A stretch of 63,678 bases of DNA, counting the filler, from Stramenopiles sp. TOSAG23-6 (taxonomy: Eukaryota): NCBI GenBank assembly GCA_900128565.1. It is 11 parts of 11 records of this genome, joined end to end, with 100 filler letters (N's around TTAATTAATTAA, not from the genome) between each part and the next. Parts side by side here need not be neighbours in the genome. Positions count along the whole stretch, not along the records: positions 1 to 6,185 come from LT636757.1; positions 6,286 to 12,466 come from LT636758.1; positions 12,567 to 18,742 come from LT636759.1; positions 18,843 to 25,018 come from LT636760.1; positions 25,119 to 31,287 come from LT636761.1; positions 31,388 to 37,550 come from LT636762.1; positions 37,651 to 43,805 come from LT636763.1; positions 43,906 to 50,060 come from LT636764.1; 3 more parts are not named here. One strand, given 5' to 3'. Below the pieces are notes generated by a model. The model made no database searches, was not told the origin of the DNA, and worked only from the letters and a program-made list of their open reading frames with translations. Position numbers and translations under genes: made by a program. Shown here piece by piece: positions 1 through 63,678 of the stretch (its first letter is position 1; each line of letters starts with the position of its first letter).

Positions 1-958
1 GTACAAAATTTCGTACGAAAACAAATTCGAATTTGAAAAAAAATAAAACATACATTGAAGCTATCACCATATGCGGTAGTCGCTGGGCCTGAATGACCTA
101 GGTTACCATTTGGCTGATAGTAACCCCAGCCAAATTCAGTTTGATTTACATATGTATTAATATTGCAACCTTCAACATGTATTATGAAAAATTATCTTAC
201 ATTCGATTTTTTTGTGAGGTATAAAATGTTTTTACGAAAAAAAAAAAAATTTAGGTAGATAAAAATTTCATAATGAAAAAACATACGCATATACCGATAG
301 TAGTTTTACTCCCCTTTTCTGTACATATTGACCATCGTGTGATGCCTGATTGGACACCATTTCCTATTAGCGTCATACCATTACTCCATCCCTTTTTGGA
401 TTTTATTAGAGCAAGTAATCTTTGACCATTATCCATTTTATTGACTGTTCGAATACAGGGTCCAACTTGGATACATTGTAACAAAGTTACCGAAGCATTT
501 TTTTCATACAAAGAAATTGCACCAACAATGCCAAGATCTTGATCTAATGTATGTACAACGTCTTTAATATTAAATGCTGGGCCAAGGTGTTTACCATTTA
601 CTCTGAATGATAAAATACCATCATCAGCGTTTACAATCACCTCTATCAAATCACCAGGCTTTAAGGCAGTCCCGTATTGTGTTTTTGCTGGACTTGCATG
701 TCCAATATTACCATTTGGTTGATAATAACCCCAACCTTTATCAGTCTGATTAACGTAAGAATTAAGACTTACATCACTCAGACAAATACCAACTGTTATT
801 TTTCGACCACGATTTATCCGATATAACCATCGAGTGCTTCCATTCCGAACAACAGGCTGTAAAAGCACAAGACCATTTTTCCAACCTGTGGATCGCTTGA
901 CCGCAGTGCTCGTAGGAGCATTTACCAAAACTTGAGAAGCAGACGCATAAAGCCGCAT
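1..958 (-). CDS. Tandem SPRY/B30.2-domain protein; spliced and 3'-truncated (introns 177-286 and 1-53)
   Basis: Two SPRY-like repeats, ITVGICLSDVSLNSYVNQTDKGWGYYQPNG and TTIGIC|VEGCNINTYVNQTEFGWGYYQPNG, align without gaps once 177-286 is removed. The start codon is uncertain. Confidence 0.8.
177..286 (-). mobile_element. Repeated intron family copy, GTATG...AATACAT (GT-AT)
   Basis: Removal gives TGC|GTT (GIC-VEG), collinear with the first SPRY repeat. Confidence 0.8.
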
Positions 959-1236
959 TTCAGGTGTGAAGTAAAATGGAAAGATATTTATTTCAGATTT
1001 ATAATTACTCTAATACTCTTTCGAAGAAGATGATGACCAGCAAGAAAAAAAAAGTGATGATGGCCATAGGTTAGATCAATCAATCAATCACACAATGGGC
1101 GCGCGCGAATGCTGTCATTTTGTTCGTGTCAAATTCAATGTCATTGTATTATTTATCGATATAATTACTACTGTGATCTCAGATCAACGTGATATAAATA
1201 ATAAACAAAAGCTATAATCTTGCAACTAGCCTAATA

Positions 1237-1602
1237 ATGATGCACCCATATTTGATTATTGTACTTGCCGCTCTAGTAAATAGCAGTGCTGCAAGTTCAC
1301 CATTCGATTTCGATAATCTAGATAAAGTTTGTGGTACTGGTGTTGGGAATAAAAATCAACGTGTTGAAGGAAAACTCGATTGTGGAAATCCACTTCTTTC
1401 TTGCTGGGAATTTTCGAAGACTTCTCTCTTTGCTGATGAATCTATTACCACAGATACATGCCAAAAGAACTATCTCTTTTATGGTGCCGTATCTTTTATG
1501 GGTACACTTGTTTTAGGTTTAACGATGCTTGCACTAAGGAGATTGTGTTTCAACCAGCCAAGAAATAAGCCAATGACTCGAAGTTTGTTGTCTCACTGTT
1601 GA
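1237..1602 (+). CDS. Small Cys-containing single-pass membrane protein with signal peptide
   Basis: 121-aa ORF with a hydrophobic N-terminus and a C-terminal TM segment followed by RR. Confidence 0.6.
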   Translation: MMHPYLIIVLAALVNSSAASSPFDFDNLDKVCGTGVGNKNQRVEGKLDCGNPLLSCWEFSKTSLFADESITTDTCQKNYLFYGAVSFMGTLVLGLTMLALRRLCFNQPRNKPMTRSLLSHC

Positions 1603-1806
1603 GATAAAAACTCATCAATCGTATTTTACCTGATCGGTTGTTACTTCACAAGGTCAATTTTGTGATTTTTTTTCAGTTGACCAATTAATTGTAGCAAAAT
1701 AAATTTAGATTTGAATTTCAAAAAAGGAAAAACATAATCTTTATTTCTCTTTATTTCTCTTTATTGTCCAAAATATCCTAAAACAATTTACACTATATTC
1801 AACTAT

Positions 1807-3709
1807 CTAAAGTTCTTCAGATTTCAACTTTGTAATTTTCCATGCACTCTCGTCAAGTCCTTGCAATCTTCGTACAAGAGGACTCATGAGCACATACCAA
1901 GAAATTCCACAAGCAACACAGATCACGGATAAAAGATAATATCCATCAGTTCCACGAATCTCACAACTGCCTCCAGCCGTTTCACAGTGCTTAGATCCAA
2001 GTTTACCTGCCCAATATGAACACGGGGCATATGAAATTCCACTAATATCAACAGTAGTAGTATTTACTGTACATTCTTTCTGTGTTGTATAATCCACAAG
2101 TGAAAGTACCAGAGTGATGGGCCATTTTGACCCTAAATTAGCAAATGTATTGAGAAGAGTCATATATGTCCCACCAATACCCGGTTCACTACGCGCAACA
2201 CGACTAAAAAATGACATTTGTGCGACAAACATTGAGACAGAAACAACACCATGGGCAATCATTACAAGTGTTAATACACCATAAAACATTTGTAAATTCC
2301 AAGTAGTCTCGGAATCCTTCAATGCAAAAGGGACAATATATACTAAAATAGCACCAAAGAGAGAAATAGGAAGTCTGTAAATAAATGTATTTTGGAAAAA
2401 TATTTCAAAAAAAAATTCGTTAGGTACAAAATTGCGTACGAAAAAAATTCGAAATTAAAAAAAATAAAATATACATGCTCGTAGGAAAATATTTAAAGGT
2501 CTTGGTCCTGCGGTATACTGTGAAATATATGCAGTCAATGCTATATCTATTGGAGTGATTATAGCCGAAAGAAGAGCAAGATGTTCTTTGGACACACCTG
2601 CTTCCATTAACTTCAATGCAGTAACTCCATATATTGTGAAAAATATTTTTTTTTTTTTGAATTAAATTTTTTTTTTTGAGTTGAAAAAAGATCGTTACAC
2701 ATGAAATTGTATACCAAAAAAAACATAAACGAATACACTTGAAATGAATAATGAAGCTTATGAAAACGATATAAAAAAGTCGCCAAATAGAGGGCAACTT
2801 CATCACACTAACAACCTCCTTATAAGCACCTAATACTTGAGGGATTTCTTCGTCTGTTTTTTCGTGTTTGAAAAAAATAATGTATGTTAGGAAAATATGT
2901 CAGATTTACAATTGGTTAGGTACAGAATTTACTATAGTAACCATTGGATAAAAAAGAAAAAATCGAAATTGAAATTTGAAATGAATGATTCAAACTTACA
3001 TTCCAACAGTAAAAATAAAAATAATTCCCCAGAAAATCATAAAATTACCAAGAGTTAAAAGCTTGTATGAATAGAGACATAAAAAACCAGTATAGGCAAC
3101 AAAATATCCTAGAGTTTGTCCAATTGAATTGCAGGATGATGCATATCCAATATTTCTTTTCTGAAGTAGAGTCAACGCCCAGCCGTCAACAGCAATGTCT
3201 TGAGTTGCCATGAGAAAAAATAGCAAAAAGAAGATGATAGTAAGACCCTTCACGTCAATACCATCACCATTAGACATAATCATGTCATCGACATGGCCTC
3301 CGAGAGAAATCATTAAAATTCCAGTCAAAAGCTGAACAGGTAATAACCAAGTTTTACGCCGGCCAAGGCGGTTATAAAATACTGCATCTACAATTGGAGC
3401 CCATAACACTTTTAAAGAAAAAGGCCAACTTACTAAAGAGAAAAGCGATTGATCGGTGAAAGAAGAACCCTGCTCCTGTAGCAGAAACGGAACACTCCCA
3501 GCTAAACCCATCGGAATACCCTGTAATGTATATAGAAGGAAAAGAAGAGCTACGTTTCCGTAGTCACCACGAAGATCAGCCTCTTCTGTGACTTTGGTAG
3601 GGTGACTCTCTTTTGAAGCATCCAATTCGATCGAGCTTACACCCTGTGAAGAATTGGTGGGTACTTTTGAATATGATACCGTAGACCGTTTCTTAGTGCT
3701 TGACGCCAT
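1807..3709 (-). CDS. SLC33A1: Acetyl-CoA transporter AT-1 (MFS), spliced (introns 2880-2999, about 2629-2760, 2385-2474)
   Basis: Motifs LYTLQGIPMGL, WPFSLKVLWAPIVD, ATQDIAVDGWAL, GGTYMTLLNTFANLG and DGYY. The middle junction does not resolve cleanly. Confidence 0.9.
2385..2474 (-). mobile_element. Repeated intron family copy (GT-AT)
   Basis: Removal gives RA-FIYRL. Using the nearby TTTACAG acceptor frameshifts into a stop. Confidence 0.85.
2880..2999 (-). mobile_element. Repeated intron family copy (GTAAG...CATACAT, GT-AT)
   Basis: Removal gives in-frame TVGI-IFFKHEK. Contains GTACCTAAC. Confidence 0.8.
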
Positions 3710-3991
3710 TTTCTGATCTAATCAAAATCACTGAATGATAATATTAATAATATTTCAGCTAGCTCGTGAGAAAATACCGTAGCAACTTTAGGATAAGGTA
3801 GTATAGAAAAACAACTTTGTCTTCTCGCGTCAAGTCAACTGGACTCTGGAGGAGACAAGTCAAAAAGTCGACGGTATCCTTGGTCATCTTCGGCAAAAAC
3901 AAAACACGAAAAATAAAAAAAGCAAAATTTGATATATTTATATTATTTTCAGAAATTCTACCATCATAAATGAATTATAAATATTTTTATC

Positions 3992-6185
3992 TTAAAAGAA
4001 GTATACTTGAGCATCATTCGGAAATAAAAGAGATAGAAGATTAAAGTTTAATGGACCAGACATTGGGTTATCTTGAAGATTCCTATATTTGTAGTGATAT
4101 GAAAAATATGCTGATATTAAGTCATTGAAATATAATGAATATAAAACATTGTTGATTATACTGAGTAATGCTATGATTATTACATACAAATTACGCAGTT
4201 GAGGAATTGGCAACAGGCCATAAAAGCTTGTAATTTGATTATTAAAGAGATTCCTATATTCGTAGTGATATGAAAAACATTGTAATATTGAGTCATTGAA
4301 AATATAATGAATATAAAATTTTGTTGACTATATTGAGTTATGCTGAAAGTTTTACGTACAAATCCAGCAGATTCGGAAGCTGGGGCAATCCGTTGAAGCT
4401 TCTAATTTGATTTTGTTCGAGATACCTGTATTTGTAGTGATATAAAAAATATCGTCAAATTGAGTCATTGAAAATATTGAATATAACACATTGTTGACTA
4501 TATTGAGTTATACTGAAATTATTACGTACAAACTAATCAAACTCGGAACTACTGGCAGTCCAAAAAAGCTTGTAATTTGATTATTTGAGAGATTCATATG
4601 TTTGTAGTGATATAAAAAACATTGTAGTATTGAGCCATTGAAATATAATGAATAAAAATTTTGTTGATTATATTGAGTAATGCTACAATTATTACGTACA
4701 ATTCTTCCAGTCGAGGAAATTCTCGTAGGCCATCAAAGCTTGTAATTTGATTTTGTTCGAGAAACCTATATTTGTAGTGATATAAAAACATTGTAATATT
4801 GAGTCATTGAAAATATTGAATATAACACATTGTTGACTATATTGAGTTATGCTACAATTATTACATACAAATGTCTGAGTTGAGGAAGTGCTAGTCGTAA
4901 TCCATGAAAAGTTGTAATTTGGTTATGATCGAGATGCCTATATTTGTAGTGATATGAAAAATATGCTGATATTGAGTCATTGAAATATAATGAATATAAC
5001 ATTTTGTTGATTATATTGAATTATGCTGAAATTTTACATACAAATCCTCCAGTTGAGGAAATTCTGGTAGGCCATCAAAGGATGTAATTTGATTATGATC
5101 GAGAAACCTATATTTGCAGTGATATAAAACGTTGTCATATTGAGTCATTGAAAATATTGAATATAACACATTGTTGACTATATTGAGTTATGCTGAAATT
5201 ATTACGTACAAACTCCTCAGATTCGGAAGTACTGGAAATCCATGAAAGGATGCAATTTGATTATGATTCAGAAACCTATATTTGTAGTGATATAATAACA
5301 TTGTCATATTGAGTCATTGAAAATATTGAATATAACACATTGTTGACTATATTGAGTTATGCTTAAATTATTACGTACAAACTCCTCAGATTCGGAATTA
5401 CTGGAAATCCATGAAAGGATGCAATTTGATTATTTGAGAACTTCCTATATTTGTTGTGATAGGAAAAACATTGTAATATTGAGTCATTGAAATATAATAA
5501 ATTTAAAATTTTGTTGATGATATTGAATTATGCTGAAATTTTACATACAACATCTCCAGTAAAGGAAGTTCAGGAAATCCATGAATACTTGTAATTTGAT
5601 TACTGTTGAGATACCTATATTTCTAGTGATATAAAAAACATTGTGATATTGAGTCAGTGAAATATAATAAATATAACACACTATAGACTATATTGAGTTA
5701 TGCTAAAATGTTTACGTACAAATATCTGAGTTCAGGAAGTGCTGGTGGTAATCCATCAAAGCTTGTAATTTGATTTTGTGCGAGATCCCTATATTTGTAG
5801 TGATATAAAAAACATTGTAATATTGAGTTATTGAAAATATTGAATATAACACATTGTTGAGTATATTGAGTGATGCATAAATTATTACGTACAAACTCCT
5901 CAGATTCGGAAGCTCGATTAATCCATGAAAGGATGTAATTTGATTATTTGAGAAATTCCTATATTTGTCGTGATATGAAAAACATTGTAATATTGAGTCA
6001 TTGAAATATATGGCATATAAAATTTTGTTGATGATATTGCGTAATGCTACAACTATTACGTACAATTCCAAAAGTTGAGGAAGTTCAATTAATCCATCAA
6101 AGCTTGTCATTTCATTTTGTTCGAGATGCATATATTTGTTGTGATAGGAAAAACATTGTAATATTGAGTCATTGAAATATAATAA
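3992..6185 (-). CDS. SDS22-like leucine-rich repeat protein, one 22-23 aa LRR per exon, 5'-truncated
   Basis: About 171-bp tandem units, each a 66-69 nt exon (LxLxxNQITSFxGLxxxPxLxxL) plus a roughly 104-nt phase-2 intron. The last exon ends at TAA 3992. Confidence 0.9.
4083..6185 (-). repeat. Tandem exon+intron array, about 12.5 units of about 171 bp
   Basis: Intron sequences are near-identical between units (plus-strand ATATTGAGTCATTGAAA and TTTGTAGTGATAT recur). Confidence 0.95.
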
Positions 6186-6285
6186 NNNNNNNNNNNNNNN
6201 NNNNNNNNNNNNNNNNNNNNNNNNNNNNNTTAATTAATTAANNNNNNNNNNNNNNNNNNNNNNNNNNNNNNNNNNNNNNNNNNNN
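6186..6285. other. Artificial contig spacer N44-TTAATTAATTAA-N44 (also 12467-12566, 18743-18842, 25019-25118, 31288-31387, 37551-37650, 43806-43905, 50061-50160, 56316-56415, 62571-62670)
   Basis: Identical 100-nt spacer with six-frame stop codons. Contig lengths are non-increasing (6185, 6181, 6176, 6176, 6169, 6163, 6155...). Confidence 0.98.
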
Positions 6286-7313
6286 ACAAAATTTCGTACG
6301 AAAAAAAATCGAATTTGAAAAAAAAATAAAACATACATGCTCCATCCATCGTAGACTAACTAAACATTTTTCATTGGGATCTAATGTTTGAGGGATACCA
6401 TTGAAGCATTCATTTGGCTGATAAATTTGCTTTTGATAATCTCCATCAGCAATAGGCAATATTGTGAAAATATATTTCAAAAAAAAATTTAAATTTGTTA
6501 GGTACGAAATTTGGTACGAAAAAAAAATAAATTTGAAATTAATGAAGAAAATGTACAACTTCATCGGAAAGACAGCGATGTAAATAAACACCCTGTAATG
6601 CACCAGGACACCAAAAATCAACTGTTATATTTGCTGCCGGTGATCGACCTGAGTTTGGAAGGCATGCTCTAGCATTATGCCACATAATTCCAGGCCCATC
6701 ATGTATTTTGGGAAAATATTTTTTTTTTCGGTAAAAAAAATTTGTTAGGTACAAAATTTTCTATGAAAAAAAAATTCGAAATTCAATTTTGAAAACGTAC
6801 ATTCTCATCCGGAGCCAGAATTGACCAATCCTCATCTGGCCCACAGTGCTCCGCCTGGTGAAAAGCTGACAGGCATTCACCAGATGGAAGACCATTCATG
6901 CACTCTGATTCTACAAATAAGTGCTGAAAGTAATGCTCGCGTCGGTCTCGTCCATAATAAAATTCTTCAGGATTTACAAATTGTGTTGCTAGCAAAAAAT
7001 CTTCCATGTGATCAGGAAAACCTTCAAAGTGACAGCGATGAAATTGGCCTCGTAATCCAGTGTTATTTACATTGATTCGATCAGGTTGTATTAATCTATT
7101 GAGATGCACACGTGTCTCTCGCATGCGCAATGAATGAGTTAATTTTCTTCTAGAGTGCCCTATTGCTCCCCGTGAAGCGTGTCTTCCTCGTCTTCCTCCA
7201 GGATTAGTTGTAACTAAAATCTGATGCAACGTTCCATGTTGCACAGTTTCCGACCTTGCACTCCATGAAATAATCAAGGCAGTGATTAATATTGTTAGTA
7301 ATCTATAGAACAT
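6286..7313 (-). CDS. Secreted Cys-rich protein of unknown family, spliced and truncated (introns 6701-6800, 6457-6556, 6286-6336)
   Basis: Signal peptide MFYRLLTILITALIISWSARS. An ECxNGxP...CL...EH motif recurs. Exons join in frame across family introns. Confidence 0.65.
6457..6556 (-). mobile_element. Repeated intron family copy ending in TG (GTACA...CAATATTG)
   Basis: The position-equivalent 3' end gives in-frame DEV-PIADGDY. There is no usable AG. Confidence 0.65.
6701..6800 (-). mobile_element. Repeated intron family copy (GT-AT)
   Basis: AAT|GTACG...AAAATACAT|GAT, in frame. Confidence 0.8.
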
Positions 7314-7652
7314 GGGGAGTCTGTCACTAAGACATGTAGCAATTAATAGTTTTTCTAGCTAGATAACAAAACAAAGGATACGAAAACAACACGGAACAAC
7401 TCCTATACAAAAATTTAAAAAAAAAAAAAAATTCTTCACAACAAAGCAGGTTTGTAGGTCATGAATTTTTTAAAAATCGAAATTCTCACGATCTCATCAG
7501 CTCAGATCGCGCAATAAAATCAATGATGTTCCTCGATTCGCATCCGAATCTACTTTAGAATTTATTTAATCTCAATCTAATTCTAAAAATTTCACTCTCT
7601 TATACTCGCTTTTAGCACAGTTTTTTGAGGTTTGACTATATTTCAATTATCG

Positions 7653-10600
7653 ATGCATCGGGTATTCATTTTTAAACTGCATGTGGTATTATTATTAATA
7701 GTGTTTATCCTTTGCCATCTTCAGTATACTAAATCCGATGACACTTCTGCGCCTGCCGACACGGAAACTTCCTCCTCAGTTTCTCCTCTNGAGAATAAAA
7801 AAGCAACTAAGCCTAATTTAATTGAAGATAATACATCTTTGACCAACAAAGATAAAGTGGAAGATTTTTCTCGTGGTCGTGTGGTTGATGTGTACTGGAA
7901 AAAGGGAAAGGTTCTATATGGCGGCTACATTGACTTTATCAATTCAGATGGAACTTTTGATATTCAATATTTCGATGGTGACTATGAACTAAACGTGGAT
8001 GTCACTTTTATCAAGTTGCGTGAACCAGCTGTAGTTTTGGAAGAAATAGTTACTAGTAAAACAAAAAAGAATATTAAAGACTTGTTTTTCAGTTTTAGAG
8101 GAATCACAAATGAAGCTCAAGAATATTGGTTTCATAAAATGTTGTCGTTGTTACCAAAAGCAGCAGCAGAAGAATACAAAAGGTCGTCAAAGAATCCCAA
8201 ATCTCCTGATAATTCACCCTCTTGGAATAGTTCCAAATTATATCAAGAAAGTTTTCCAAAAGAGCTTTCATTTATGCGTCCAAACCAAGAAGAACCTTCA
8301 TGTTCGTTTTCATTATTCATTGCAATAATGTATTATTTTTTTCCTACCAAATTCCGTACCTAACAAATTTCAAACTGTATAAGTAGTTTTTTTACAATAC
8401 ATGGTTATTCAAGGAAACTTTCCGAAAACAAATACATTCTGATCGCTCTAAAAAGTTTCTCGATGAATTTGACCAGGCAGTGAAAAATCTAAATGACCAA
8501 AATGTGAATATTGCAGTGGTATCATTTGAAAGCCTTATTCTTAATATAAATAAATATCTTGGAGATCTTGGAAAAGAAACTCAAAAAGATGATAAGAGAA
8601 ATGAAAAGACAACTCTGCTTCAGATCAAAGCGTCTGTTGAAACAAAACTTGGTCGTATTTTGCTCTTTGGAGATTTGAAGACAGGGATGTGAANTTTTNT
8701 TTTTTTCAAATTCGATTTTTTTTTCGTACGAAATTTTGTACCTAACATTTTTTTTTCTTTGAAATATTTTTCCAAAATACATTGGACAAGACGTAAAAAG
8801 AGGGAGACAATATCTCGAAGCAGCAGCTGCATTTGGCCATCCTGTTGCTCAAAGAACATTAGCTTTATTGCCTAGTGTTGACAAAAGTACTGAAGAGAAT
8901 GAAACTCGATCAATTTTATTGCTAACGTTTGCTTCTATGTACGTTTTATTTTTTTTTCAATTTCGATTTTTTTTTTCGTACGAAGTTTTATACCTAACAA
9001 ATTTTAGTTTTTTTTTTTGAAATATTTTTCCAAAATACATGGCTGGGGATCCACAAGCATCATTAGCAATGGGATATCGACACTACAGAGGACGCGGAGT
9101 TCCTAAAAAATGTGTTACAGCTGCTGCATATTATCGCAATGCAGCTTGGCAAGCTCTTTCAGTTCGTGGATTAACCACTGATAACAATTCTATGTCAATC
9201 GATCGCTCGAAATTATTAAAACGGAGAATCGCTGATTTCAAGACTTTTTCAAAGCTTCTTTCTTTTGACTCATGTTTGTTTTCATCATGAATTTTTTTTT
9301 TCATACGAAATTTTGTACCTAATTGTTTTTTGAGTTTTTTTTTCGATATGTTTTCATCAAAAATTCTACATTTGTTTTTTTTACCACGAAAATATTGTAC
9401 CTAACTAAGTTTCTATCCAATAGAAGATATTTTTCACAGAGCATACGAGTATGCAGCTAATGTTGCGAATGATCCTACGGCAAAGGCAGCCCTTGGTGAA
9501 TTATACTTTAGAGGGGCTCCTGGTGTGTATATAAAAAAAGACGTGAATTTAGCTGAGGATTATCTCCGCGCAGCAACGAAACAAAACCAAAAACAAGCAA
9601 TGTTTACATTAGGTCAATTATTAGCAGAAACAGAGGATACTCCAAAATCTGTCGCAGCTCGNAGTTTATTAGGGAAACNTGTTAAAAAGTCTAAAAACAC
9701 TTCNCCATCATTTTTTACTTTTTTGTTGAAGAAAATAGGCGCAATAGAATTATTGGAAGATGTTCTTTCTTTATTTAATGAAGAAGACAAAGAAAACTAT
9801 GAGGAAATTACGTTACCTCCAGGTCGCTTCAAGTTTCTCGGTGGGTCTTTTTCATATGGTAATGATAGATTAGACGAAGCTTTTGCATGGTTAGAGTATG
9901 CCGCGTCTTCGGGAAATATAGATGCGATGCGTGTTCTGGGTGCAATGCATTTATATAATGTTCTCCCAGTCAATACTTTAGAAACCACATTATCGTTGGC
10001 ATCGGATTATTTAACTGAGGCAGCTAATGGAGGCAGCGGTGCTGCGTATTATGATCTTGGACTGATGTACCTTGCTGGATATGGTAAAAAAGTATCTTTT
10101 GCTAAAGCTTTCAAAATGTTTCAAAAAGGTGCTCAGACGGGTCATTCACAATCGATACTCGCAGAGTTTGAAATGGAGCTTCTTGGGCTTGGAGCTATGG
10201 AAAATGGAAATGATTGGGAAGTAGTTTGTGATAAAAAAATAAAAAAAGTGAAAAAAATTGCCGAAGAAGGTGAGTGGGGTATAAAACAATTACGAGATGC
10301 TCGTTCCCGATATATGAATCATGATGCTACAGGTGCTTTATATCGATATTTGGAGCTCGCTGGTCAAGGGTATGGAGTTGCCCAAGCGAATGCGGCTTAT
10401 TTGATGACACATCGATCCGCTGGTTTTGCTAGTTTGTTTGGAGTTTCTTCATTGTTCGAATCAGCTAAATTATTTGGTTCTTCGATTTCAGTTTTTATTT
10501 CTGAAATTACAAACATTTTGGTCTCCATCGGGAATTATAGAATGACCAAAGGTAATACTAAGCACAATAATGTCAATGTAGGATTTTTTTATGATAATGA

Positions 10601-12067
10601 CGAATCTGGTGATTCTAATAGTGATGGTGTTTGGTGTGGCAAACACCATGCAACTTCATGTAAAGCTTGTCCAGAAGGAAGTAATACTGAACAATCGATC
10701 AAAGGTTTATGTGAAGGGGATTGTAGTTGGTCTGGTAAAGTTTGTATGATGAATAAGGATCTTCTCAAAAAAGTACTTCGTGGATCTCCATTACTATCAT
10801 CGTATAATATTGGAATTCCAAATCCATTTGCTNTAGCGTATGATTTATATACCGAAGCATTATTTCAAGGGTGGCACGAAGCTGATACTCATATGGGTAA
10901 TATGTTATTTCTACAAGCGGATTTTTTACAAATATTTGGCCATTCTTCTGATAAATCAAGTTTAGATATGACTGGTCAATTTAGTAGTAATGTAGGGAAA
11001 AGACATCTTACGGGGAATTCATTTCTCTTGTATCACAAAGCAGCTGAACATTATTCCAAGGCTTTAAAGAAAAGAGACGGCCAGGCTGCGTTTTATATAG
11101 CTTATATGTTTGACACAGGTATTGGTATGCCTCGAAGTGAAAAAAAAGCAATTGGTTTGTACCACAACGCTTTTCAATTTGCAAGAATGAAAGGTGGTAT
11201 TAGTGCTTGGTGGCCTGTACACATCATGCTATTTCGTTTACGTTTGTTTAAGGCTGTATCTCGTATTGCACACGCTGGTAGAACATGTATACATCCTTTC
11301 ATTGTAATGACATCTAGTGATAATACAGAGAATGTATATCGTGATGATGGTGACTTTACACTCCAACCCTCCTATTTAGAGAAAATGAAAACTTTGGCAT
11401 TAAAATTATCTGTATTCCGTAGCTTTTTAATACTAATACCAATAATCAACAATAATTTGCGCTTTTTTGATTCATATCTTGAATCAATGGTCAAGAGATA
11501 TCCAAATGCATCACATAATGTAGAAGATACGAAAATTAAAGTTGACGCAGGTGATGCTTCAGGAATGAGTGTGGACAAGAATGGCACATCGTTAAAGGTT
11601 TATGACCGAGTGAAGGCTCAGTGGTTAAGAGGGAAAACATATTTTAATGGATACATTGATCATGTTAATGATGATGGTACTTTTGACATTCAGTATGATG
11701 ATGGGGATTATGAAGCTAGCCTTCCAGCGAAATATTTGAAAAAAATTGTCAAAAAGACTGAAACTGACAAAAATTCAGACATTTCATTATCTTCCTCTTT
11801 GAAAGCATTAGGTCAATTATTTCACTCTTCAAGTGAAGCGCTAGGTTTTTCGACGTCTCAAATCCATCGTGATGATTTTGATTTGATTCTACTTCTTTTG
11901 TGTATATTTCTTATACTGGTTTTAACCAATTGGTTTCTATGTATGTTTTATTTTTTTTTCAAATTTGAGTTTTTTTTCGTACGAAATTTTGTACCTAACG
12001 ATTTTTTTAGATTTTTTTTGAAATATTTTTCTAAAATACATCTCAACTGCACTTGATATTATTTTAA
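7653..12067 (+). CDS. Sel1-repeat HRD3/SEL1L-like type I membrane protein with two Tudor-like domains; spliced (introns 8302-8402, 8689-8782, 8939-9040, 9274 to about 9430, 11941-12041)
   Basis: Signal peptide, many Sel1 repeats, TFASMAGDPQASLAMGYRH and AGQGYGVAQANAAYL (SEL1L-like), C-terminal TM. The true 3' end is uncertain. Confidence 0.8.
8302..8402 (+). mobile_element. Repeated intron family copy (GTTCG...AATACAT)
   Basis: T|GG joins ORF 7632 to the frame of ORF 8480. Confidence 0.8.
8689..8782 (+). mobile_element. Repeated intron family copy (GTGAA...AATACAT)
   Basis: Removal restores the Sel1 repeat GDLKTGI-GQDVKRGRQYLEAAAAFGHP. Confidence 0.8.
8939..9040 (+). mobile_element. Repeated intron family copy (GT-AT)
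   Basis: Removal restores TFASMAGDPQASLAMGYR with SEL1L-like spacing. Confidence 0.85.
11941..12041 (+). mobile_element. Repeated intron family copy, near consensus
   Basis: GTATGTTTT...CGTACGAAATTTTGTACCTAAC...AAAATACAT. The flanking exon phases disagree (see findings). Confidence 0.8.
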
Positions 12068-12370
12068 GAAGTGCTGCAACACAAACCTGCTGGATTACAA
12101 CTCCAACATTTATCCCTCATGGCTCTCTAAGAAAATCGATTGTAACAGCGGCAAATGTACTTTATTTATTTATTTTTTTTTAGTACGAAATTTCATACCT
12201 AACAAAACAATTTTAAAAAAAATTTAATTTTTTTTTTTCGTTTTTTGGTTTCCGTAAAAAATAATCATACCTAACAAAAGTTTAAAAAACAATTGAAATA
12301 TTTTTCATTACTACAGAATGGTGTTGATATTCGAATTCTTACAACAGGAGACCATGAAAGGATGCGTCCT
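12043..12370 (+). CDS. Phospholipase D/cardiolipin-synthase-like fragment (intron 12157-12316, GT-AG)
   Basis: Translates as ILRSAATQTCWITTPTFIPHGSLRKSIVTAAN|NGVDIRILTTG, resembling the PLD-family I.TPYFIP...AA.RGVDVRIL segment. Confidence 0.55.
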
Positions 12371-12621
12371 GTATGTTTTATTTTTTTTTTATCAAAAAAA
12401 TCCAATTTTTTTTTTTATAGTAAATTTTGTACCTAACAATTTTTTTTAGATTTTTTTTGAAATATTNNNNNNNNNNNNNNNNNNNNNNNNNNNNNNNNNN
12501 NNNNNNNNNNTTAATTAATTAANNNNNNNNNNNNNNNNNNNNNNNNNNNNNNNNNNNNNNNNNNNNGTACGAAATTTTGTACCTAACGAAAAACAATTTG
12601 AAATATTTTTCCAAAATACAT

Positions 12622-15600
12622 TTGCAGCAGTAGAAATTGAAAAAGAGATGGAATCTCTCACTGTAAATCTTCATCGAATTGTACCTGAAGCTTCAGAAAA
12701 ACAAGTACAACATACACTAAATCAGTATTGTGTTGGTTTGAATAGTGATGGGAGTGCTCGAAGTCGTACTGGGTTTCCGAAAGCTATTAAAGCCCTAAAA
12801 AATGAAATTTTACGTGTAAAGATGGAAAGTATAGATGATGACTCTTCTCGTTCGAGTAGCAATGAAAATGATTCCATTCGTTCAAGTAGTGTTGAATACA
12901 GTTCGTCAAGTACAGAAAGTAAATCAAACAATATTGAAGATAAATTTGGAAGAATTTTAGAGGAAAGGAGACAGAAAAAACGTATTCGACTGAAACAAAT
13001 GGAAGATGAACGATTGCGAGTACAACAAATTGAACAAGAAAAAATGATTTCACGAAAAGTTAAAGGATTACTCGTGAAATTAAATTTACCCTCCGAAATG
13101 GTAAACACAATTATAGAAGATAAAGAATTTAAGAATGCCGCACTTGCAAAGTTGCAACTACAGGACCCTGCTGGATTAGCACAGCTTATTCAAGGCAAAA
13201 TTGCCCAGGTAAATAGTATTCGATATGGTGGTAATGGGGGTGGTGCAATCGGTGGTGTTATGAGTGCAATGGGTGCAATAGGTGGAATGCCAATGTCTCC
13301 TATGGGAATGAGCCCACATAATGTACCAAGAAACGTTGATGCACTTTCATTACTCTCCAAAGAAATGCCAAGTTTACCTGGCTTAGCCAATGTGGTAATG
13401 CAACAGCCAGTAGATGTTAAAGAAAAAATATCGTCAGATACAACAGCAAAACAACAGACGGGTAAGTTAGATGTTAAAACATTATCGCCAAAAACATCGT
13501 CAAATAAATCAACTTCAAATACAATAGAGAAGAAAAATACATCAAATAAAATAAGTGAGAGAGATATTGCTCTTCGTAAACGTCTTGCGGAAGAAGCAGC
13601 ATTAAATGGTAACCCCTTCCCCGAAAGTATTACCCAAAACAGTAATTTGAAATTAAACATTACCGTAAATAGTTTGGCAAATTCATCAAAACCATACCCC
13701 GCGCCTGCAATTCCTGAACAATTACTTAAAGAAAAAAACTTACGACAAAAAGAGTTACGCCAGCGAATTGCAGAACGAAGAAAACTCAATAAACTCGTTA
13801 CTGAAAAAGCCACAGCAAATGGAGACGTCAAAGATAAAAGTACTGAAGTATCTAAAACGTTTAATACATGGGGTCAACCTTTAATAGATGTAGAAGCAAA
13901 ACGTAAAGAGGAGTTAAATAAAAATCATCATAGAAATAAACTAAAAGGTACACCGATTACTAGTATGCAAATGGAAGAGCAATTAAGAAGCGAAATAAAG
14001 GATAACACTCGTGAACTACTATCATCTGTACGCGATACTATACCCAAAAGTGTATTTAAACCTGTGCCTGTAAAAACTGTTCGTTTTCAAGACAATATAG
14101 TACAGGAAGCAAGTAATATATTACCATCAAATATATCATCTAGTAGTAGCAGCGCTCTTCTTCATGAAAGAACGCGTATGACAATGCTTCGCCAAGAAGA
14201 AGCAGTCCAACGCCAAAGATCACATTTTGATAGTATGAAAAAAAACAAACGAAAGACTCGTGAACGGTATAGTTTTTGGTGGAGATTGATTGGAGTTGAC
14301 TCAAATTCAAGTGAACAACTTCAACGTGAACAACAGGAGCATTTACGCCCAGAGATTGAAGATCTTCTGGCTAGAGAATGCACCACTTGTCTTATCGATT
14401 CTTGGAATTGTTATGATACTGATGGTGTTGAAGGAATAGCAAATAATGTAATTCCAGATTTGTGTGAGAGTACTTTACACAATATAAAGATGGCAATTGC
14501 AAACAAATATGATTGGGGTGACACGAGTAAGAACATTACAACAGCAAGTGTTGAAAAGATTGTGGAGTCGATTTTTGACGCGCCTGATGATTTGTTGACA
14601 TATATGACTGCATATTTTATATCATCATCTGAAACAAATTGCGGGGTTTTGAGTAAGCAATCTTTCTTACGATACTTTAATGCGCACTTACATTTAAACG
14701 AAACCGAAAAAGTGGATAGTTCAAATAATAATGATAAACAGAGGAAAGATAGCCACGTTAGTACATCATTAAAATCATTGTTTTCTGTTGGAGATAGTGT
14801 TTTGTACACTGATTCTAATGACGCTGTTTTCAATGCCACTATTAAAGAGAAACATCTAGATTCCTGTACTAAAAAAGAAGGAATAGAAGAAGGGGCGTAT
14901 TACACATTGTCTTTGCCAAATGGGCGTGAGAGACAAACTTTAGAAGATCGAATATCCGTCATTAAAAACACGCCAAAAATTTCTCAATTAGTTACAAACA
15001 AACCAAGCAAAAAAATGCGACGGGAAAAGCAAGCATCTGCATTAAGTGCATTGTGGAACGAATTAGATGAATTAGCTGCAATGTCTTCGCCAAGTATGTT
15101 ACAAGCAAATGATGCAGATGACGACAGTAATAATAGGAAGCAATGGAAAAATTGCGTTGATGAATGCATAACTCAAATCAATAATAATATTGATGATGAG
15201 AAATATTCTTCAAATGAGAGTGCTATTCATAATGGTGCAAAAGTAGGAAATTCTGACAGTTCTGATTCAAATCTAAAACAAGATCAATCCGATGGTATTC
15301 GACGAGGTTCAGGATACTCTGCAGCAAAGATATACAGGAATAAGATAAAATTGAAAGGTCAACTTCAAAAAAATAAGAAAACAAAGAAGAAACGAGGCAA
15401 AAGTAGAAAAGTAGAACATCAAAAGCAACATCGAAAACAAGATCAGTATCCAGCAAAGCTATCTGGGAAACTTAGTAAAGCTATATTTAAAAAAGATATA
15501 GAACCGCAGAATATAAATAAACGATATTCTACTACACCACAAGAAAGTATAAATCCTAAGAGTATTACCAAAATGATTCCAGAGAACACTTTGATAAATA

Positions 15601-16286
15601 ATAATATACACTACACAGAAGATAAATCGTTTGAATCATTATTACATTTGGAGAAAAGAAAACTTGACGAATTACAAAAACGTCAACAATCGTATAAAAA
15701 GTTTTGTGAAGTAATAGACAAAGATAATTTAGACTTTCAGTTTAAAAACAGAAACAAAAATGATAATTTTGGAGAAAAACGTTCTCGCATTGATGATCAA
15801 TTATTTCTAGAATCAGTATCTAACAACGACATATCAAACAAAATAATATCAGTAAATAGTAATAATTTAGATTCTGATGGGAGCAACGGAAAAATTGCAT
15901 TAATGAATGCATCTCGTTTAAGGAGGTTCTATGAATTTAGGTGCCCTTCAAAAATCGGTGCTGTCGAAAAAATTCTCAAGAATAATATCGGTAAAGAAAA
16001 AGCTTTATTTTCAAAGGTTTTACGAAAATATGGAAATGTATCAAAAACTAATGAGAGGCTACAAACAGTGCAAGAAGTCATTGAATCATATGTTAGTAAA
16101 TTACCTCATGGTGTTGTGAAAAGAGCTTTAATAGACAGGGGTAATGAAGTGCTAGGTACAGAGACACAAAATCGCTCTACTCTGAAGAATACGTTACAAA
16201 ATCAAATAAATCTAGGAAAAATTGACGAAACACTTTTAGTTGCTATACTAGGTAAAAAACAATTCAAGTTATTTCGTCCATACTAA
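12622..16286 (+). CDS. Large low-complexity/coiled-coil protein of unknown function; terminal exon, 5'-truncated
   Basis: 1212-aa ORF that stays open upstream to a family intron end at 12621. Confidence 0.75.
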
Positions 16287-16414
16287 CATTAAATTAGTAG
16301 TCGTAGACTTACAAAAAGTGAAATATTAAAAAATTTTACAAATAAATGAATTCCAAGAATTTCAAATTTCAAATTTGGTGTTATGACATGAACTAGTCAG
16401 ACATTCATTCGTTC

Positions 16415-17314: not shown

Positions 17315-17486
17315 TTCAAAGTTTTAAATAAAAAATAAATATGTCGTAATAATTTATAAAAAATTTAAATTCGGAAGAAATTAAAAAATATAAAATATAG
17401 AAAAGTGAAAAAAATATTATGATTTACACAAACTATTTTATACTACTATATTCTTTATATACTATAACTATGTACTACTGTGATAT

Positions 17487-18542: not shown

Positions 18543-18897
18543 TCTATATAGAAATGCAATAAATGACTTTACTATGAAAATAATAATGTGNCCGCGANCC
18601 ATTTCCATTTCGATTTTGAATCGAGGATTTCGTGTGATCGATCGGAGATTTTTGTATTCATTGATTTTTTGAGATGATTTCTTTCGAGAGACTCGTGTCG
18701 TGTNCGTGTTACTCACAGTGTGAACAGAAACACAATTAGGACNNNNNNNNNNNNNNNNNNNNNNNNNNNNNNNNNNNNNNNNNNNNTTAATTAATTAANN
18801 NNNNNNNNNNNNNNNNNNNNNNNNNNNNNNNNNNNNNNNNNNGTACGAAATTTTGTACCTAACGAAAAACAATTTGAAATATTTTTCCAAAATACAT

Positions 18898-25949: not shown

Positions 25950-25981
25950 ATAATGACGTTTTGATTTTTGATATTTTAATT

Positions 25982-43805: not shown

Positions 43806-43905
43806 NNNNNNNNNNNNNNNNNNNNNNNNNNNNNNNNNNNNNNNNNNNNTTAATTAATTAANNNNNNNNNNNNNNNNNNNNNNNNNNNNNNNNNNNNNNN
43901 NNNNN

Positions 43906-45067: not shown

Positions 45068-47577
45068 ATGGAAGCTGCAGATCAATCCTTCAAGACGAAA
45101 CCCAACAAAGAAAAGAGCGCAATAAAAGCGGAGTGTTCTTTGACTTCGGGACCATCGGAATTCACTATGCCACCAACATCGAATAGGCATCTTCCGACTG
45201 CAGCGGTAAAAATTTTGAAAGGTACGTAACTTCATTAAATATTCGTTTTCGCCGGGTCAGCTTTGTGTTTTCGTGTGCTTTTGTTTCTTAATTTCGTTTT
45301 TCATTCTGCTTGATATAGATTAGTCGTTCTCATTTTCATTATCTTTCATCATGTATATATTTAAAATCACAGATTGGATGATGTCCGAAGAGCATTTTAT
45401 GCACCCGTATCCTTCAGATGCTGAAAAGCAGGAGTTGGTTGCGAAAACAGGAATCCGCCTGAAACAGCTCAACAATTGGTTCACCAACGCTCGGAAACGT
45501 ATCTGGCGCCCAGTTTTTGATTCACGTTTAGCTGCGCAGTCAAAATCACCACATTCTAATAATCCGTGTATAATATCTCCAATGAACAAAATGCCTGCTG
45601 GTGCCTCGAATAATTCTCCTTTTGGTTGGTCTATGCCAAGACGTCGTAGTGAAGTGGATGCTTTGTATGGGCTTACAGTTTTAGGCAGCGGCGAGACAGG
45701 AAATTCATCAGCATATTCTACAGCATCTGGTTCTACGACACCTTTAAAACAAAACGAAGCGCCCAATGTAATTCCCGGTATATATATGCAGAACATGCGC
45801 CAATGCTTTAAAAATGGTCCCGTAGGAAATATTTTTTTTTTAGTATTTTTTTTTTTCATACGAAATTTTGTACCTAACAATTTTTTTAAGTTTTTTTTTG
45901 AAATATTTTTCCAAAATACATTCCGTGAACTCTGCTACTATTGCTGAGTATGATGCGAAAGGTACAAAAACAATCGATGGTAAAACGAAACCATTGACCT
46001 GTGATACGAATTCCGTACCTAATTATCAAAATACACCCAAGAAAGAAAATATCGGGAGTATTTCGAGCTGTACTAATTTGGTCAAAAATGACAATTCTCA
46101 GTTACCTGTGACGCCAATAAATAATACAACTGTTGCAATGAATAAAGTCGCCATTCCGTTCACACCAACTGTACCCTACAGTAGTCCACTCACTAAGGAG
46201 AGGATTGAAAGTTTTTTTCAAAGTAACATTCAGCATTCTCCTAATGTAAATAATATGGAACATAATGTGTCTAAAGATGGCGATGCAGCTGCAAAGACTT
46301 TTCCGACACCGGCTAATGTTTCTACACAAACTAAAGTCTTGTCTCATCTTAACCAAAATCAGGTTACATCTAAATTTGATAATACATTGAATTCATCTAG
46401 AGATGTTGAATCATCTAGTAATCATTTGAGTAAGACAGTACTTACGTGTAAGACGAGTGAAGAATCTCCAATGGGACATACTGGAAATATTCCTCGAAGT
46501 GTTACTCCACAAACTGCTAACTCTCTTAATGGAAATGTTACCTTTTGTGTTACTCCTCCGATTACGATGACATCATCTTCAAATACAAATATCTCTGAGG
46601 TTTCTTCAACAACATCAGTATCTAAGAAAACTTCACCTCAGCTTCCTCCAGGCAAGAAACGATGCCTCTCGCTATCTGATGGAAGTAACATATATGTATC
46701 TTATGCGGGTGAAAAAAGATCTAAAAAATGTGATAGTAGTAATCCATCAAGTGATAACTGGGATCCTTTTGCAACTTTGATGGCTTCGGCTGTTGTCCAA
46801 CCTATAACCTCAACAGATTCCCAAGAGTTAAAAAACAATGATGAAAATGTGAAAGAAAATACATCATCTAAGAATTCAACTTTAGTATCTACAAAGAAGA
46901 GATTATCGATAGATGTTGAAGCCGCAAAAAGTCGAATTAAACGAAATCGCGTCTCCAGTAGTGAAATTGGCGCTGATATGCTTGTACGTATGTCGTCATT
47001 ATCTGAATCGCCCAATCTTGCTGCTTCAAAAACTGCCACCCATTCAAATGCAAGTGTTCCAATTTTGATAAATCCTTCATTAAATGATAATCTGGGTACA
47101 AAAGATGTCACACAACTTGCTGCTGGGTATTCAAAGCTAAATGAAAGCCAATTATCAGAATTATCAAAATCAATATTAGAGGGGCAATTACCAACAAATA
47201 CGCCCTTTGTAAATATGCCAGTGTTTGATAAAAATGGAAATCCAGTTTTCCATTTTTCAGAATTCCCACCAATGCCTTCTCAATTTAAGACACCAAAACC
47301 GAAGAAAGTGTATGTTTTATATGAATTTCTATTTTTTTTTCATACGAAATTTCGTACCTAACGAATTTTTTTTGAAATATTTTTCAAAATACAACTTTCA
47401 CCACTACCTTTTCGTGCACATTTACAAGCTTTTCTAAATTTAGCTAAACAAAAATCTATTTCTGATGGGCTCTCATCGGCGTTATTAATTATGCGTGATG
47501 AGGATAATAAGAGCAAAGATAAAATTCGGGGAATAGCAAAAANTCGCAANTCAAAAAAAANAAAAANAANGCGCATA
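45068..47577 (+). CDS. TALE-class homeodomain transcription factor (introns 45222-45372 GT-AG, 45822-45921 GT-AT, 47310 to about 47394); 3' end uncertain
   Basis: LPTAAVKILK|DWMMSEEHFMHPYPSDAEKQEL...QLNNWFTNARKRIW, with the PYP loop. Confidence 0.85.
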
Positions 47578-47654: not shown

Positions 47655-48392
47655 ATGTCGCAATTAGAATTTCGTGCATTTTTTCATACTTGTTCAACTG
47701 CGGTGTGTTTTATTTTTGTTCAATTTCGATTTGTTTTTTTTGACGAAATTTCGTACCTAACAAATTTTACAAAAAAACATATTTTTTCACAATATATGTA
47801 ATGTATATAATACCATTGTTTGTCACATTACTATTTGGACTACTAGTTTATCACTTCAATTTTGCTAGAGAGANTCAATTGTCTATGAAATATGATGATA
47901 TCGTCGCATCGAAAACATCGAATAATAATTCGACTTGTANGTTTTCAAAATATTTTTCAAAATATTTTTACCTATATTTTTTNACTATGAAAATTCCAAA
48001 CCTAAGAAATTATTTTACTACAGAAAATATTTTTTCACCACCCATATTACTCCAACAACTCCAGCCATTCAGAGATATCCCAGAGTATGCTTTCATCAGA
48101 TGNTTTTGTAGATGATTCAATGAAACATCCTTCATTTCATTTTATACTAAAAAAGGTAATGTTCTGGAGCAGTCATTCGAATAAAATGGCAAATTCTCAA
48201 TCCTTCGAAGAAATTACTGAAAATGAAATTTTTGTTATGGAAAGAAATGCAAAGAAATTGATTTCCCTATTGGCTATACCTATGAATATTTATCAATCAA
48301 TATTTGGTTTTGCTCTTTATTGGTGTATTGCAAATTCTGCNATGCTTTCTTTTTTTGGTGTCGTTTTTTATTTGTATTCGAATAAAAATTGA
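47655..48392 (+). CDS. Hypothetical membrane protein, low-quality sequence (intron 47703-47797, GT-AT)
   Basis: MSQLEFRAFFHTCSTA|VMYIIPLF joins in frame across a family copy. Ns and a frame break lie downstream. Confidence 0.4.
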
Positions 48393-62400: not shown

Positions 62401-62570
62401 TGTTTGTTTTCACATCAGTGACTACCATACCAAATGGCCCACGGTGTAATGGACAAAAGATTTTTGATGTCTTTGGTCGCGTAATCCAATGAACAGTTTT
62501 GTCCGTTGAAAATTTTTGATTCATACTTGATGATTGTAAAGGTTGTAGAGGTTGTTTAGTTAAAACTGGC
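56416..62570. repeat. Third copy of contig 43906-50060 (FHA 56416-57151, TALE from 57578, CCDC124 61109-61783, ZnF 62066-62570)
   Basis: Offset +12510; identical including N positions. Confidence 0.95.
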
Positions 62571-62670
62571 NNNNNNNNNNNNNNNNNNNNNNNNNNNNNN
62601 NNNNNNNNNNNNNNTTAATTAATTAANNNNNNNNNNNNNNNNNNNNNNNNNNNNNNNNNNNNNNNNNNNN

Positions 62671-63631
62671 CTGCTGTCGCAGCCTTAATAAACGATCCAG
62701 CACGTAAAAGGCTCACCAAAATGGTAACCCGAAGCACTGCCGCGACAATAATGTTTCTTGTTGCATATTTGGTATTTTCAATGGGGCATGTATTTGTGGC
62801 TTGTGTTGCTCTTGCTCTTCAGTTTTCTGTGTTCCAAGAGATGCTCGCTGTTCGTTACTGTCTTCGTGAAGAGAAAACAATCCCTTATTTTAGGACTACA
62901 TGCATGCTTTGGTTCTTTGTCGCATGTTTTTATTCATATGGATCAACCTGGCTGAGGGCTCCTCTCGGTGGAGTTGACATTCTCAAAAAAAGTGTACCAT
63001 TTATGGAAGGTTTTATCGCGATTGAACAGTTTCATGAGTTTATTTCATTTTGTTTATATTGTATGATATTTGTTCTCACAGTATTACAATTTCAAGAGGG
63101 TAAATTTGAATATCAAATGACTCAATTAGCTTGGACATTTCTGACTATTGCTGTTGTTATTCTTCAATCAAAAAGTTGCATAGTTAACATCTACAATGGA
63201 ATGTTTTGGGTGGCATTTCCAGGCCTTTTAGTAATAACAAATGACGTCATGGCTTATTTTGTAGGGAAAGCTCTGGGTAAAAAAATGTACAATGGACCTT
63301 TTTTACCACATTTATCACCAAATAAGACGTGGGAAGGGTTTATTGGGGGTGGTATTTTCACCATGATTTTTGGATGGGGGACTTTAACTACCGGATTAAT
63401 GGAACGCGTAGAGCTGTAGACAAGATGCTTTCTCTGGACATGCACGATTTGATTTGTACATATGAGCAGATTAAACTTCATGGAGGCTGTGAACCAAGTA
63501 ATGTGTTTACACCACAAGACCTTCGGGTTTGGCCGTTCTCTCAATTTTTGGATGAGAATAGTGTTCCTATTATTCATGTCATGCCAGTTCAAGTACATGG
63601 TCTATTTCTTGCAGCGTTTGCTTCTATGATT
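62671..63631 (+). CDS. CDS1: Phosphatidate cytidylyltransferase (CDP-DAG synthase), partial, with an internal frame break; family intron starts at 63632
   Basis: LVITNDVMAYFVGK...LSPNKTWEGFIGG, then in another frame CEPS.VF...PVQVHGLFLAAFASMI. Confidence 0.85.
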
Positions 63632-63678
63632 GTATGTTTTCAACATTGAATTTTTTACCAATTTCGAATTTATTTTTT

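Follow-up and report, generated by a model that had tools for sequence, protein, structure and literature searches.

The stretch of DNA analysed here (the window; 63,678 nt from assembly GCA_900128565.1 of Stramenopiles sp. TOSAG23-6) is populated by a repeated element of 90-110 nt that starts with GTAYGT, carries a TACCTAAC core and ends in AATACAT. In one gene, that for Arp2, this element is cut precisely from RNA at the predicted positions. Most of the introns formed by such copies end in AT, and the element is best understood as an introner family resembling miniature inverted-repeat transposable elements (MITEs), removed by U2-type splicing in a host that tolerates a non-AG 3′ end; we give this reading a probability of roughly 0.8. 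We infer further that the family is genome-wide and mobile and that the spliceosome of this host does not need the AG.

Positions are those of the whole window, which is not one piece of chromosome but 11 size-sorted contigs (6185, 6181, 6176, 6176, 6169 and 6163 nt, four of 6155 nt, and a last, cut piece of 1008 nt). The linkers between them consist of 44 N, TTAATTAATTAA and 44 N (6186-6285, 12467-12566, 18743-18842, 25019-25118, 31288-31387, 37551-37650, 43806-43905, 50061-50160, 56316-56415 and 62571-62670). Contig 4 (18843-25018) is an exact repeat of contig 3 (12567-18742), and contig 8 (43906-50060) recurs, identical or at 99.98%, as contig 9 (50161-56315, one difference) and contig 10 (56416-62570), so that the unique DNA amounts to about 44.2 kb.

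A 24-nt core of the element, sought with up to three mismatches, gave 30 matches (duplicate contigs included) and none in 100 shuffles. A hidden Markov model (HMM) built from 12 copies gave 42 nhmmer hits (E<1) in unique DNA, or 37 once overlaps are merged, spread over at least 12 different genes in 44 kb; four of the hits are the halves of two dimeric introns made of tandem partial copies. Two copies lie beyond this set (43373..43557 and one starting at 63632), and the total bears out an earlier note on this DNA, made from the sequence alone, which had put the family at about 38 copies in about 45 kb of unique DNA. There are two subfamilies, one starting GTATGTTTTATTTTTTTTCAA... and ending CCAAAATACAT, the other starting GTACGTTTTCATCATGAATTTCAAA... 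and ending TCACAATACAT. The family appears to have spread recently: the copies at 11941 and 25333, in unrelated genes, share 97-98% identity, the highest found, and a young group stands at 87-94%, with old copies at 56-70%. The seven complete unique contigs have 14 ends, eight of which fall within a copy, as a high-copy repeat breaks short-read assembly in this way.

A 3′ end could be assigned in 24 of the 28 complete introns, the tally leaving out 2767..2629, 11941..12041, 25622/25627..25717 and 47308/10..47393/4. Nineteen of the 24 end in AT, two in TG and three in AG. The earlier note had likewise counted 24 resolved junctions, two of them in TG, and in this it was right; its 20 AT and two AG ends become 19 and three. 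The AT ends are supported by RNA in two cases, by homology in six and by reading frames only in 11; of the TG ends, one is supported by RNA and one by frames, and of the AG ends, one by RNA and two by frames. Where examined, a C or T precedes the last two bases (CAT, TAT, TTG), as in the usual YAG. The cut always coincides with the counterpart of the element's last base, whatever that base may be. As the last dinucleotide is usually AT, with TG and AG as occasional variants, the 3′ cut is tied to a place within the element rather than to an AG.

Evidence from RNA was sought in seawater metatranscriptomes. Six runs from three studies hold 5-10% of the words sampled from Arp2 and the next contig, a share from which no habitat is deduced, and assembled RNA contigs were aligned to contig 7 only, where stretches without RNA cover are uninformative. 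Pieces from two polyA RNA libraries, X2 and X3, differ from the window by 0-3 letters and cross four exon joints. The joint from 42223 to 42412 skips 188 nt as GT..AG (X2, side 35; 1-nt slide). That from 42697 to 43058 skips 360 nt as GT..TG, with no slide, and is seen in two studies (X2, side 113; X3, side 65). The joint from 43182 to 43290 skips 107 nt and was reported as AT..AC (X3, side 60), with a 2-nt slide that allows GT..AT at 43185..43291; the joint from 43370 to 43556 skips 185 nt and was also reported as AT..AC (X3, side 80), with a 4-nt slide that allows GT..AT at 43373..43557. A single RNA contig of 221 nt skips both Arp2 introns 5 and 6. The polyA contigs of Arp2 thus skip all four of these introns as predicted.

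Protein homology leads to the same boundaries. With introns 1-6 removed, Arp2 has an open frame of 364 residues that is 87% identical to an orthologue (P0005, known as a protein only, from an intron-free contig), with no gaps at any of the six junctions. The exons of the 2-oxoglutarate (2OG) oxygenase around 18041..17952 abut at residues 227/228 of the thymine dioxygenase 5c3o_A, and those around 25333..25422 abut at positions 43/44 of the Pfam NUDIX profile. Across 286..177, the SPRY product aligns without gaps over 77 residues to the paralogous repeat of the same protein, and two of the three transporter junctions (2999..2880 and 2474..2385) are gap-free against eight homologues. Homology thus fixes six predicted AT junctions, in five genes, beyond those seen in RNA.

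Reading frames can be used more widely. In the 11 copies where both ends are set by the HMM alone, removal of GT..AT joins the longest flanking frames in nine; the exceptions are 2474..2385, which homology then shows to be GT..AT, and 11941..12041, with a clash of 1 nt. Taking all 28 complete introns together, 23 have compatible longest frames when these are chosen independently, but this is not an unbiased test because the donor or acceptor of 17 was picked with frames in view. Intron lengths are not enriched for multiples of three (9/24 of the junction-assigned introns). The AGs near three junctions, which according to the earlier note would shift the frame or meet stops, are indeed unusable: of the AGs after 2385, that at +10 is out of frame and that at +42, although in frame, drops 14 residues kept in homologues; after 25422, the in-frame AGs are those at +24 and +36, and using either would cut into the NUDIX box; and at 43057 the RNA contigs show the TG end.

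The copies and the evidence for their boundaries are as follows.

1..53, minus strand: partial copy, 5′ part, donor aat/GTATGT at 53, cut by the contig start; HMM.
177..286, minus: intron of the SPRY-domain gene, GT..AT; gap-free against the paralogous SPRY repeat, and frames.
2385..2474, minus: intron of the acetyl-CoA transporter gene, GT..AT; gap-free against the homologues.
2629..2767, minus: degenerate copy in the acetyl-CoA transporter gene, no junction assigned; homologues.
2880..2999, minus: intron of the acetyl-CoA transporter gene, GTAAGT..AT; gap-free against homologues, and frames.
6287..6336, minus: partial copy, donor cat/GTATGT at 6336, at a contig start; HMM.
6457..6556, minus: GTACAT..TG intron with an unambiguous boundary; frames only.
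6701..6800, minus: GT..AT intron; frames.
8302..8402, plus: GTTCGT..AT intron; frames only.
8689..8782, plus: intron of the Sel1-repeat gene, GTGAAN..AT; frames only.
8939..9040, plus: intron of the Sel1-repeat gene, GT..AT; frames.
9274..9444, plus: dimeric intron, two partial copies in tandem, GTTTGT..GCAT; frames only.
11941..12041, plus: young copy, 97-98% identical to 25333..25422, no junction assigned.
12157..12316, plus: dimeric intron with AG where other copies have AT; frames only, weak.
12371..12466, plus: partial copy, donor cct/GTATGT, cut by the contig end; HMM.
12567..12621, plus: partial copy, 3′ part ending AATACAT, at a contig start, duplicated at 18843-18897; HMM.
17952..18041, minus: intron of the 2OG-Fe(II) oxygenase gene, GT..AT, duplicated 6276 nt further on; homology to 5c3o_A.
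25119..25187, plus: partial copy, 3′ part, at a contig start; HMM.
25333..25422, plus: intron in the NUDIX box, GT..AT; exons abut in the Pfam profile.
25622/25627..25717, plus: copy with GA (GAACGT) at the homologous donor position, no junction assigned; frames.
27434..27523, minus: intron of the DENN/EF-hand gene, GT..AT, 90 nt; frames of 780 and 483 codons.
34864..34962, plus: GT..AT intron; frames of 563 and 132 codons.
37651..37747, minus: partial copy, donor aaa/GTATGT at 37747, at a contig start; HMM.
37876..37993, minus: degenerate copy in the ankyrin gene, GT..AG; frames and ankyrin-repeat register.
40225..40352, minus: intron of the EXPERA-domain gene, GTATTG..GTAT; frames only.
42224..42411, plus: Arp2 intron 2, GT..AG, in which the element supplies the 5′ half and the 3′ half is unrelated to it; RNA and homology.
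42480..42585, plus: Arp2 intron 3, GT..AT (RGY/AFN); gap-free against P0005.
42698..43057, plus: Arp2 intron 4, GT..TG, 360 nt, 3′ half of the element; RNA from two runs.
43185..43291, plus: Arp2 intron 5, GT..AT; RNA (X3) and homology.
43373..43557, plus: Arp2 intron 6, GT..AT, a degenerate copy that the HMM did not detect; RNA (X3) and homology.
43690..43805, plus: Arp2 intron 7, partial copy, donor tat/GTACGT, cut by the contig end.
43906..43994, minus: partial copy, donor cat/GTATGT at 43994, at a contig start, duplicated 6255 and 12510 nt further on; HMM.
44063..44160, minus: GT..AT intron; frames only.
45822..45921, plus: intron of the homeobox gene, GTAGGA..AT, boundary unambiguous; frames of 166 and 479 codons.
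47308/10..47393/4, plus: copy ending ATACAA, GT..AA or GT..CA.
47703..47797, plus: GTGTGT..AT intron; frames only, with short exons.
63632..63678, plus: partial copy, donor att/GTATGT, cut by the window end.

Some of these copies depart from the common pattern. A GT..AT cut at 2767..2629 leaves the transporter 12-13 residues shorter than its homologues; the 5′ part of this copy is open in frame and hydrophobic, and part of the copy may have turned into coding sequence. At 9274..9444, an AG at -3 also keeps the frame open (3 nt longer), and an AG at -5 is out of frame. The copy at 25622..25717 is well kept apart from its donor, and the frames around it agree with a GA..AT cut at both ends of the element, among other cuts; it may therefore use a GA donor. 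A Pfam search of the exons at 25719-25946 and 12043-12156 did not settle the adjoining junctions. The latter exon (plus strand) lies between two element introns and gives a weak PLD-like hit (E 0.033), which may mark a further gene downstream of the Sel1/transmembrane gene, separate from it or fused to it, and which bears on the junction at 11941..12041. The intron at 27434..27523 is open in the host frame, and an open reading frame of 1293 codons (25982..29863) runs through it, so that retention would add 30 residues without truncation. In the minus-strand introns 37876-37993 and 40225-40352, AACCCTAACCCTAA, two telomere-like CCCTAA units, stands directly after the donor and before the core.

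The copies are strongly oriented. At all 37 hits, the open frames flanking the element are as long as or longer on its own strand than on the other, and no clear antisense or intergenic copy was seen among them. Orientation is ambiguous in about five (44064, 2683, 9349, 12172 and 47706), and with this proviso all 37 are compatible with the earlier claim that every copy lies in sense within a coding region.

The splicing signals of the element are those of ordinary introns of the host. GTATGT or GTACGT forms 12 of the 24 donors of junction-assigned introns. Of the 21 introns that have a CTAAC-type motif, 20 carry the branch motif TACCTAAC at a distance of 33-49 nt from the 3′ end, and AT- and AG-ended copies do not differ in this range. 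Retention of U2-like donors and of a branch-point-like motif, as proposed before, is thus upheld. The host also splices GT-AG introns, and does so in element-bearing genes: Arp2 intron 1 (41579..41730) is an ordinary intron of the form GTACGT..TACTAAC..AG, and others occur in a leucine-rich-repeat array. The U2-type signals of the element introns are common to these GT-AG introns. The array itself (4187-6063, minus strand) comprises at least 12 tandem units of about 170 nt, each with a leucine-rich-repeat exon of 66-69 nt and an intron of 104-105 nt. Its introns form another repeated type, unrelated to the element (GTAYGTAA...ACAAATATAG); AG closes eleven units, and the one at 4699 has ACATATG in the corresponding position.

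Several points weigh against a family of U2-type introns with AT acceptors. Independent evidence does not extend to 12 of the 19 AT ends; eleven come from frames alone, and several of their donors were picked with frames in view. Four of the 28 junctions are without an assignment, and one of these, 2767..2629, suggests that part of a copy is translated. The RNA support is confined to Arp2 and consists of assembled contigs at a depth of 2.2-4.8, not raw reads, and contigs from the non-polyA run X1 cross exon-intron borders unspliced, possibly as pre-mRNA or as DNA. A target duplication is not demonstrable: AT reads the same on both strands and may equally be an extension of the inverted repeat; the 3′ AT stays AT where the upstream dinucleotide differs, and the flanks are nearly always AT. 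Finally, the RNAs of the element fold weakly (z of -1.6 to +0.4 against shuffles).

The last of these points bears on the alternative that survives best, improbable as we consider it: that removal is non-spliceosomal or guided by structure, as proposed for the nonconventional introns of euglenids, with the inverted ends pairing. The ends of the element are inverted repeats (ATGTAT(G)TTT... and ...AAAATACAT, the upstream AT included), the minimum-energy fold pairs GUAU (1-4) with AUAC (-6..-3) and leaves the terminal AU free in three of six folded copies, and a 3′ cut that tracks position rather than dinucleotide would suit such a mechanism. However, the folds are no better than those of shuffles and RNAalifold found no conserved pairs across copies; a hairpin that sets the 3′ site is therefore not proposed. 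The strong U2-type donor and branch motifs are conserved, and strict sense orientation is better suited to splice signals than to a symmetric hairpin.

It is very unlikely that the introns are of the AT-AC kind, U12-type or rare U2-type, a possibility that the earlier note did not consider. The exon ends in AT before the donor in 16 of the 24 introns and at four of the seven partial donors, and 14 of the 19 AT introns can be slid two bases left, as /ATGTAYGT...AATAC/AT, to give the same mRNA; two of the Arp2 joints were in fact reported as AT..AC, with slides of 2 and 4 nt. Most copies can thus formally be drawn as AT..AC, as in known AT-AC introns. U12 introns have the 5′ consensus /RTATCCTT and a branch site TCCTTAAC lying 10-26 nt from the 3′ end, and TACCTAAC is loosely like that branch consensus. 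Against this, the GT..TG intron, which has an upstream 'at', is cut unambiguously at GT in RNA, and five AT introns have no upstream AT (286..177, 18041..17952, 44160..44063, 45822..45921 and 47703..47797). The first two are fixed by homology; the exons upstream of 286..177, 18041..17952 and 44160..44063 end in gc, ct and gt, respectively, and so permit no AT-AC reading. Donor, branch motif and branch distance also misfit: the 5′ end is GTAYGT, or ATGTAYGT if slid, and not ATATCCTT; the branch motif is 33-49 nt and not 10-26 nt from the 3′ end; and the ordinary GT-AG introns of the same genes share the GTACGT donor. We therefore prefer GT-AT to AT-AC for these introns.

That the elements are missing from the DNA that is transcribed, through excision like that of the internal eliminated sequences of ciliates or because the RNA comes from insertion-free strains, is hardly credible. 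RNA contigs cannot by themselves separate splicing from DNA that lacks the element, but the same contigs skip a GT..AG intron, the 221-nt contig skips two introns at once, and the libraries sequenced are of polyA RNA. Excision from DNA would call for neither splice motifs nor a bias in orientation, and X1 has element sequence joined to exons. The idea of an ordinary MITE that sits in genes which are decayed or wrongly assembled, and is not spliced at AT, can be dismissed in spite of a fragmentary assembly with Ns and duplicate contigs: it is refuted for Arp2 by the RNA joints, and conserved proteins are intact after removal of copies whose orientation is exclusively sense.

Splicing of an introner family at a tolerated non-AG end may be pictured as follows. 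Short, non-autonomous MITE-like elements with palindromic ends (AT-GTAT(G)TTTT...AAAATAC-AT) would have spread through protein-coding genes, transposing as DNA, with the upstream AT representing either a 2-bp target duplication or a target preference. Each sense copy would bring with it a GTAYGT donor, the same as that of the host's ordinary introns, the branch motif TACCTAAC (TACTAAC in ordinary introns), a T-rich stretch and a fixed 3′ boundary 33-49 nt past the branch motif. The major (U2-type) spliceosome would remove the element through a lariat at TACCTAAC, and a cut right after the last base would restore the reading frame. The choice of 3′ site in the second step is likely to be relaxed in this host, with U accepted as well as G in the last position. 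Antisense insertions would be unspliceable and hence lost, which may account for the strict sense orientation.

A stronger proposal is that GT-AT is a regular and abundant third class of introns of the major spliceosome in this lineage, present in thousands of copies and supplied by an active MITE, in which the cut is set by context and branch distance and AG is no longer needed. We would put this at even odds. The cells go on splicing GT-AG introns as well, which would allow both classes to be set side by side in one gene.

Few signals in eukaryotic gene expression are as conserved as the 3′ AG, and the known large-scale exceptions are hard to interpret because the 5′ consensus is lost there too. 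In the window the 5′ end is fully canonical, only the last base is altered, and AG and AT introns lie in the same genes, providing a clean natural experiment on site recognition in the second catalytic step. The element also suggests a new way for a transposon to turn into a harmless intron.

Annotation is affected in practice. The database gene models of the window's Arp2 (P0044, 41498-43805) and transporter (P0121, 1810-3721) are both wrong at every non-AG intron compared. P0044 has a deletion, an insertion or a read-through at each non-AG intron and introns invented inside exon 2; P0121 loses 14 conserved residues at 2474..2385. These deletions of conserved residues, read-throughs and invented introns arise because the models use GT-AG only. 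The same error is to be expected wherever the element interrupts a gene, and surveys of introners that are built on annotated introns can be expected to overlook such families.

The two models also bear on the identity of the host, which from their EukProt assembly label reads like a MAST-3-type stramenopile; the closest named relatives are oomycetes and other heterotrophic stramenopiles. The contigs have a GC content of 27-36%, as of an AT-rich eukaryote. Besides Arp2 and the acetyl-CoA transporter, the genes include SPRY, Sel1, HIT, 2OG-Fe(II) oxygenase, DENN/EF-hand and NUDIX genes, and further domains among the proteins are HhH-GPD, GST, ankyrin, EXPERA, homeobox and CCDC124. An Rfam scan of the window at the gathering threshold found no RNA family.

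Traces of the element occur elsewhere. Four further gene models bearing the assembly label of P0044 and P0121 contain read-through translations of it, as do one ENA contig protein and P0248; P0246 and P0247, two of the five read-through-peptide hits among protein representatives, proved to be unrelated repeats. A metagenome scan gave one extra copy only, on contig L001 and in sense to an open frame, and a scan of viral contigs with the core gave no matches. Among prokaryote genome contigs a 16-mer gave at least 120 single matches; none of those listed has the element by the HMM, and we take them to be chance, the pattern being too short. In run X1 (non-polyA seawater RNA), element pieces at 43213-43418 and 42183-42388 reach a summed contig depth of about 4490, and many of their loose ends continue into further copies; the element must thus be very plentiful in this sample, in the form of either RNA or DNA.

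A search of full-text literature, with the supplementary files of introner surveys outside it, found no GT-AT intron family and no non-canonical introns of MAST-3, in keeping with the earlier note, which knew of no description of a GT-AT introner family; the available text of single-cell genome papers on such protists has nothing on splice sites or introners. As far as the accessible parts of the sources go, the closest parallels are the introners of Micromonas, Aureococcus and other aquatic protists, which are MITE-like, restore the frame and have AG (or AC) acceptors (PMC11282704, PMC9860276, PMC12130899). The families described in these parts have GT, GC or GA donors, and the surveys start from annotated introns with AG and AC as the known 3′ sites (PMC11282704, PMC9860276, PMC12130899). 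Like the introners of Micromonas pusilla and Aureococcus anophagefferens, the window element forms many near-identical short introns in unrelated genes, has MITE-like inverted ends and inhabits an aquatic unicellular host; like them, it brings its splice signals and its splicing restores the frame. Unlike them, it has AT as acceptor in 19 of 24 introns, outside the canonical GT/GC..AG pattern, and shows no demonstrable target-site duplication.

Non-AG 3′ ends on a large scale are described, in the same partial view of the sources, for three other groups. In the tunicate Fritillaria borealis, an animal, MITE-derived introns most commonly have AG-AC and AG-AT ends, with highly diverse termini (PMC11282704). 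As is proposed for the window element, these introns are transposon-derived with inverted repeats and are removed by a spliceosome that tolerates non-AG ends, and AT occurs among their 3′ ends; the window element differs in its strong GTAYGT donor, its single dominant family and its stramenopile host. In Amoebophrya, more than 60% of introns are non-GT-AG, as confirmed by RNA, with no dominant dinucleotide and no U1 small nuclear RNA found (PMC7789003). These introns resemble those of the window in being repeated and in defeating gene predictors, and they carry inverted and direct repeats (PMC7789003); in contrast to their prominent hairpins, the hairpin of the window element is weak, and GT, the branch motif and one preferred 3′ dinucleotide are kept. 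The nonconventional introns of euglenids lack GT and a polypyrimidine tract and have stably pairing ends (PMC11282704). They resemble the window element in ending in something other than AG, in carrying inverted repeats close to their termini and in their suspected MITE origin, and have direct repeats at their junctions, whereas the window element has GT, CTAAC and T-rich tracts and no significant structure. In all three groups the 5′ end is non-canonical too, as far as these sources describe it. A strong GT donor and a branch motif joined to a preferred AT acceptor, here in probably transposon-derived introns of a stramenopile, set this element apart from all the systems with which it has been compared.

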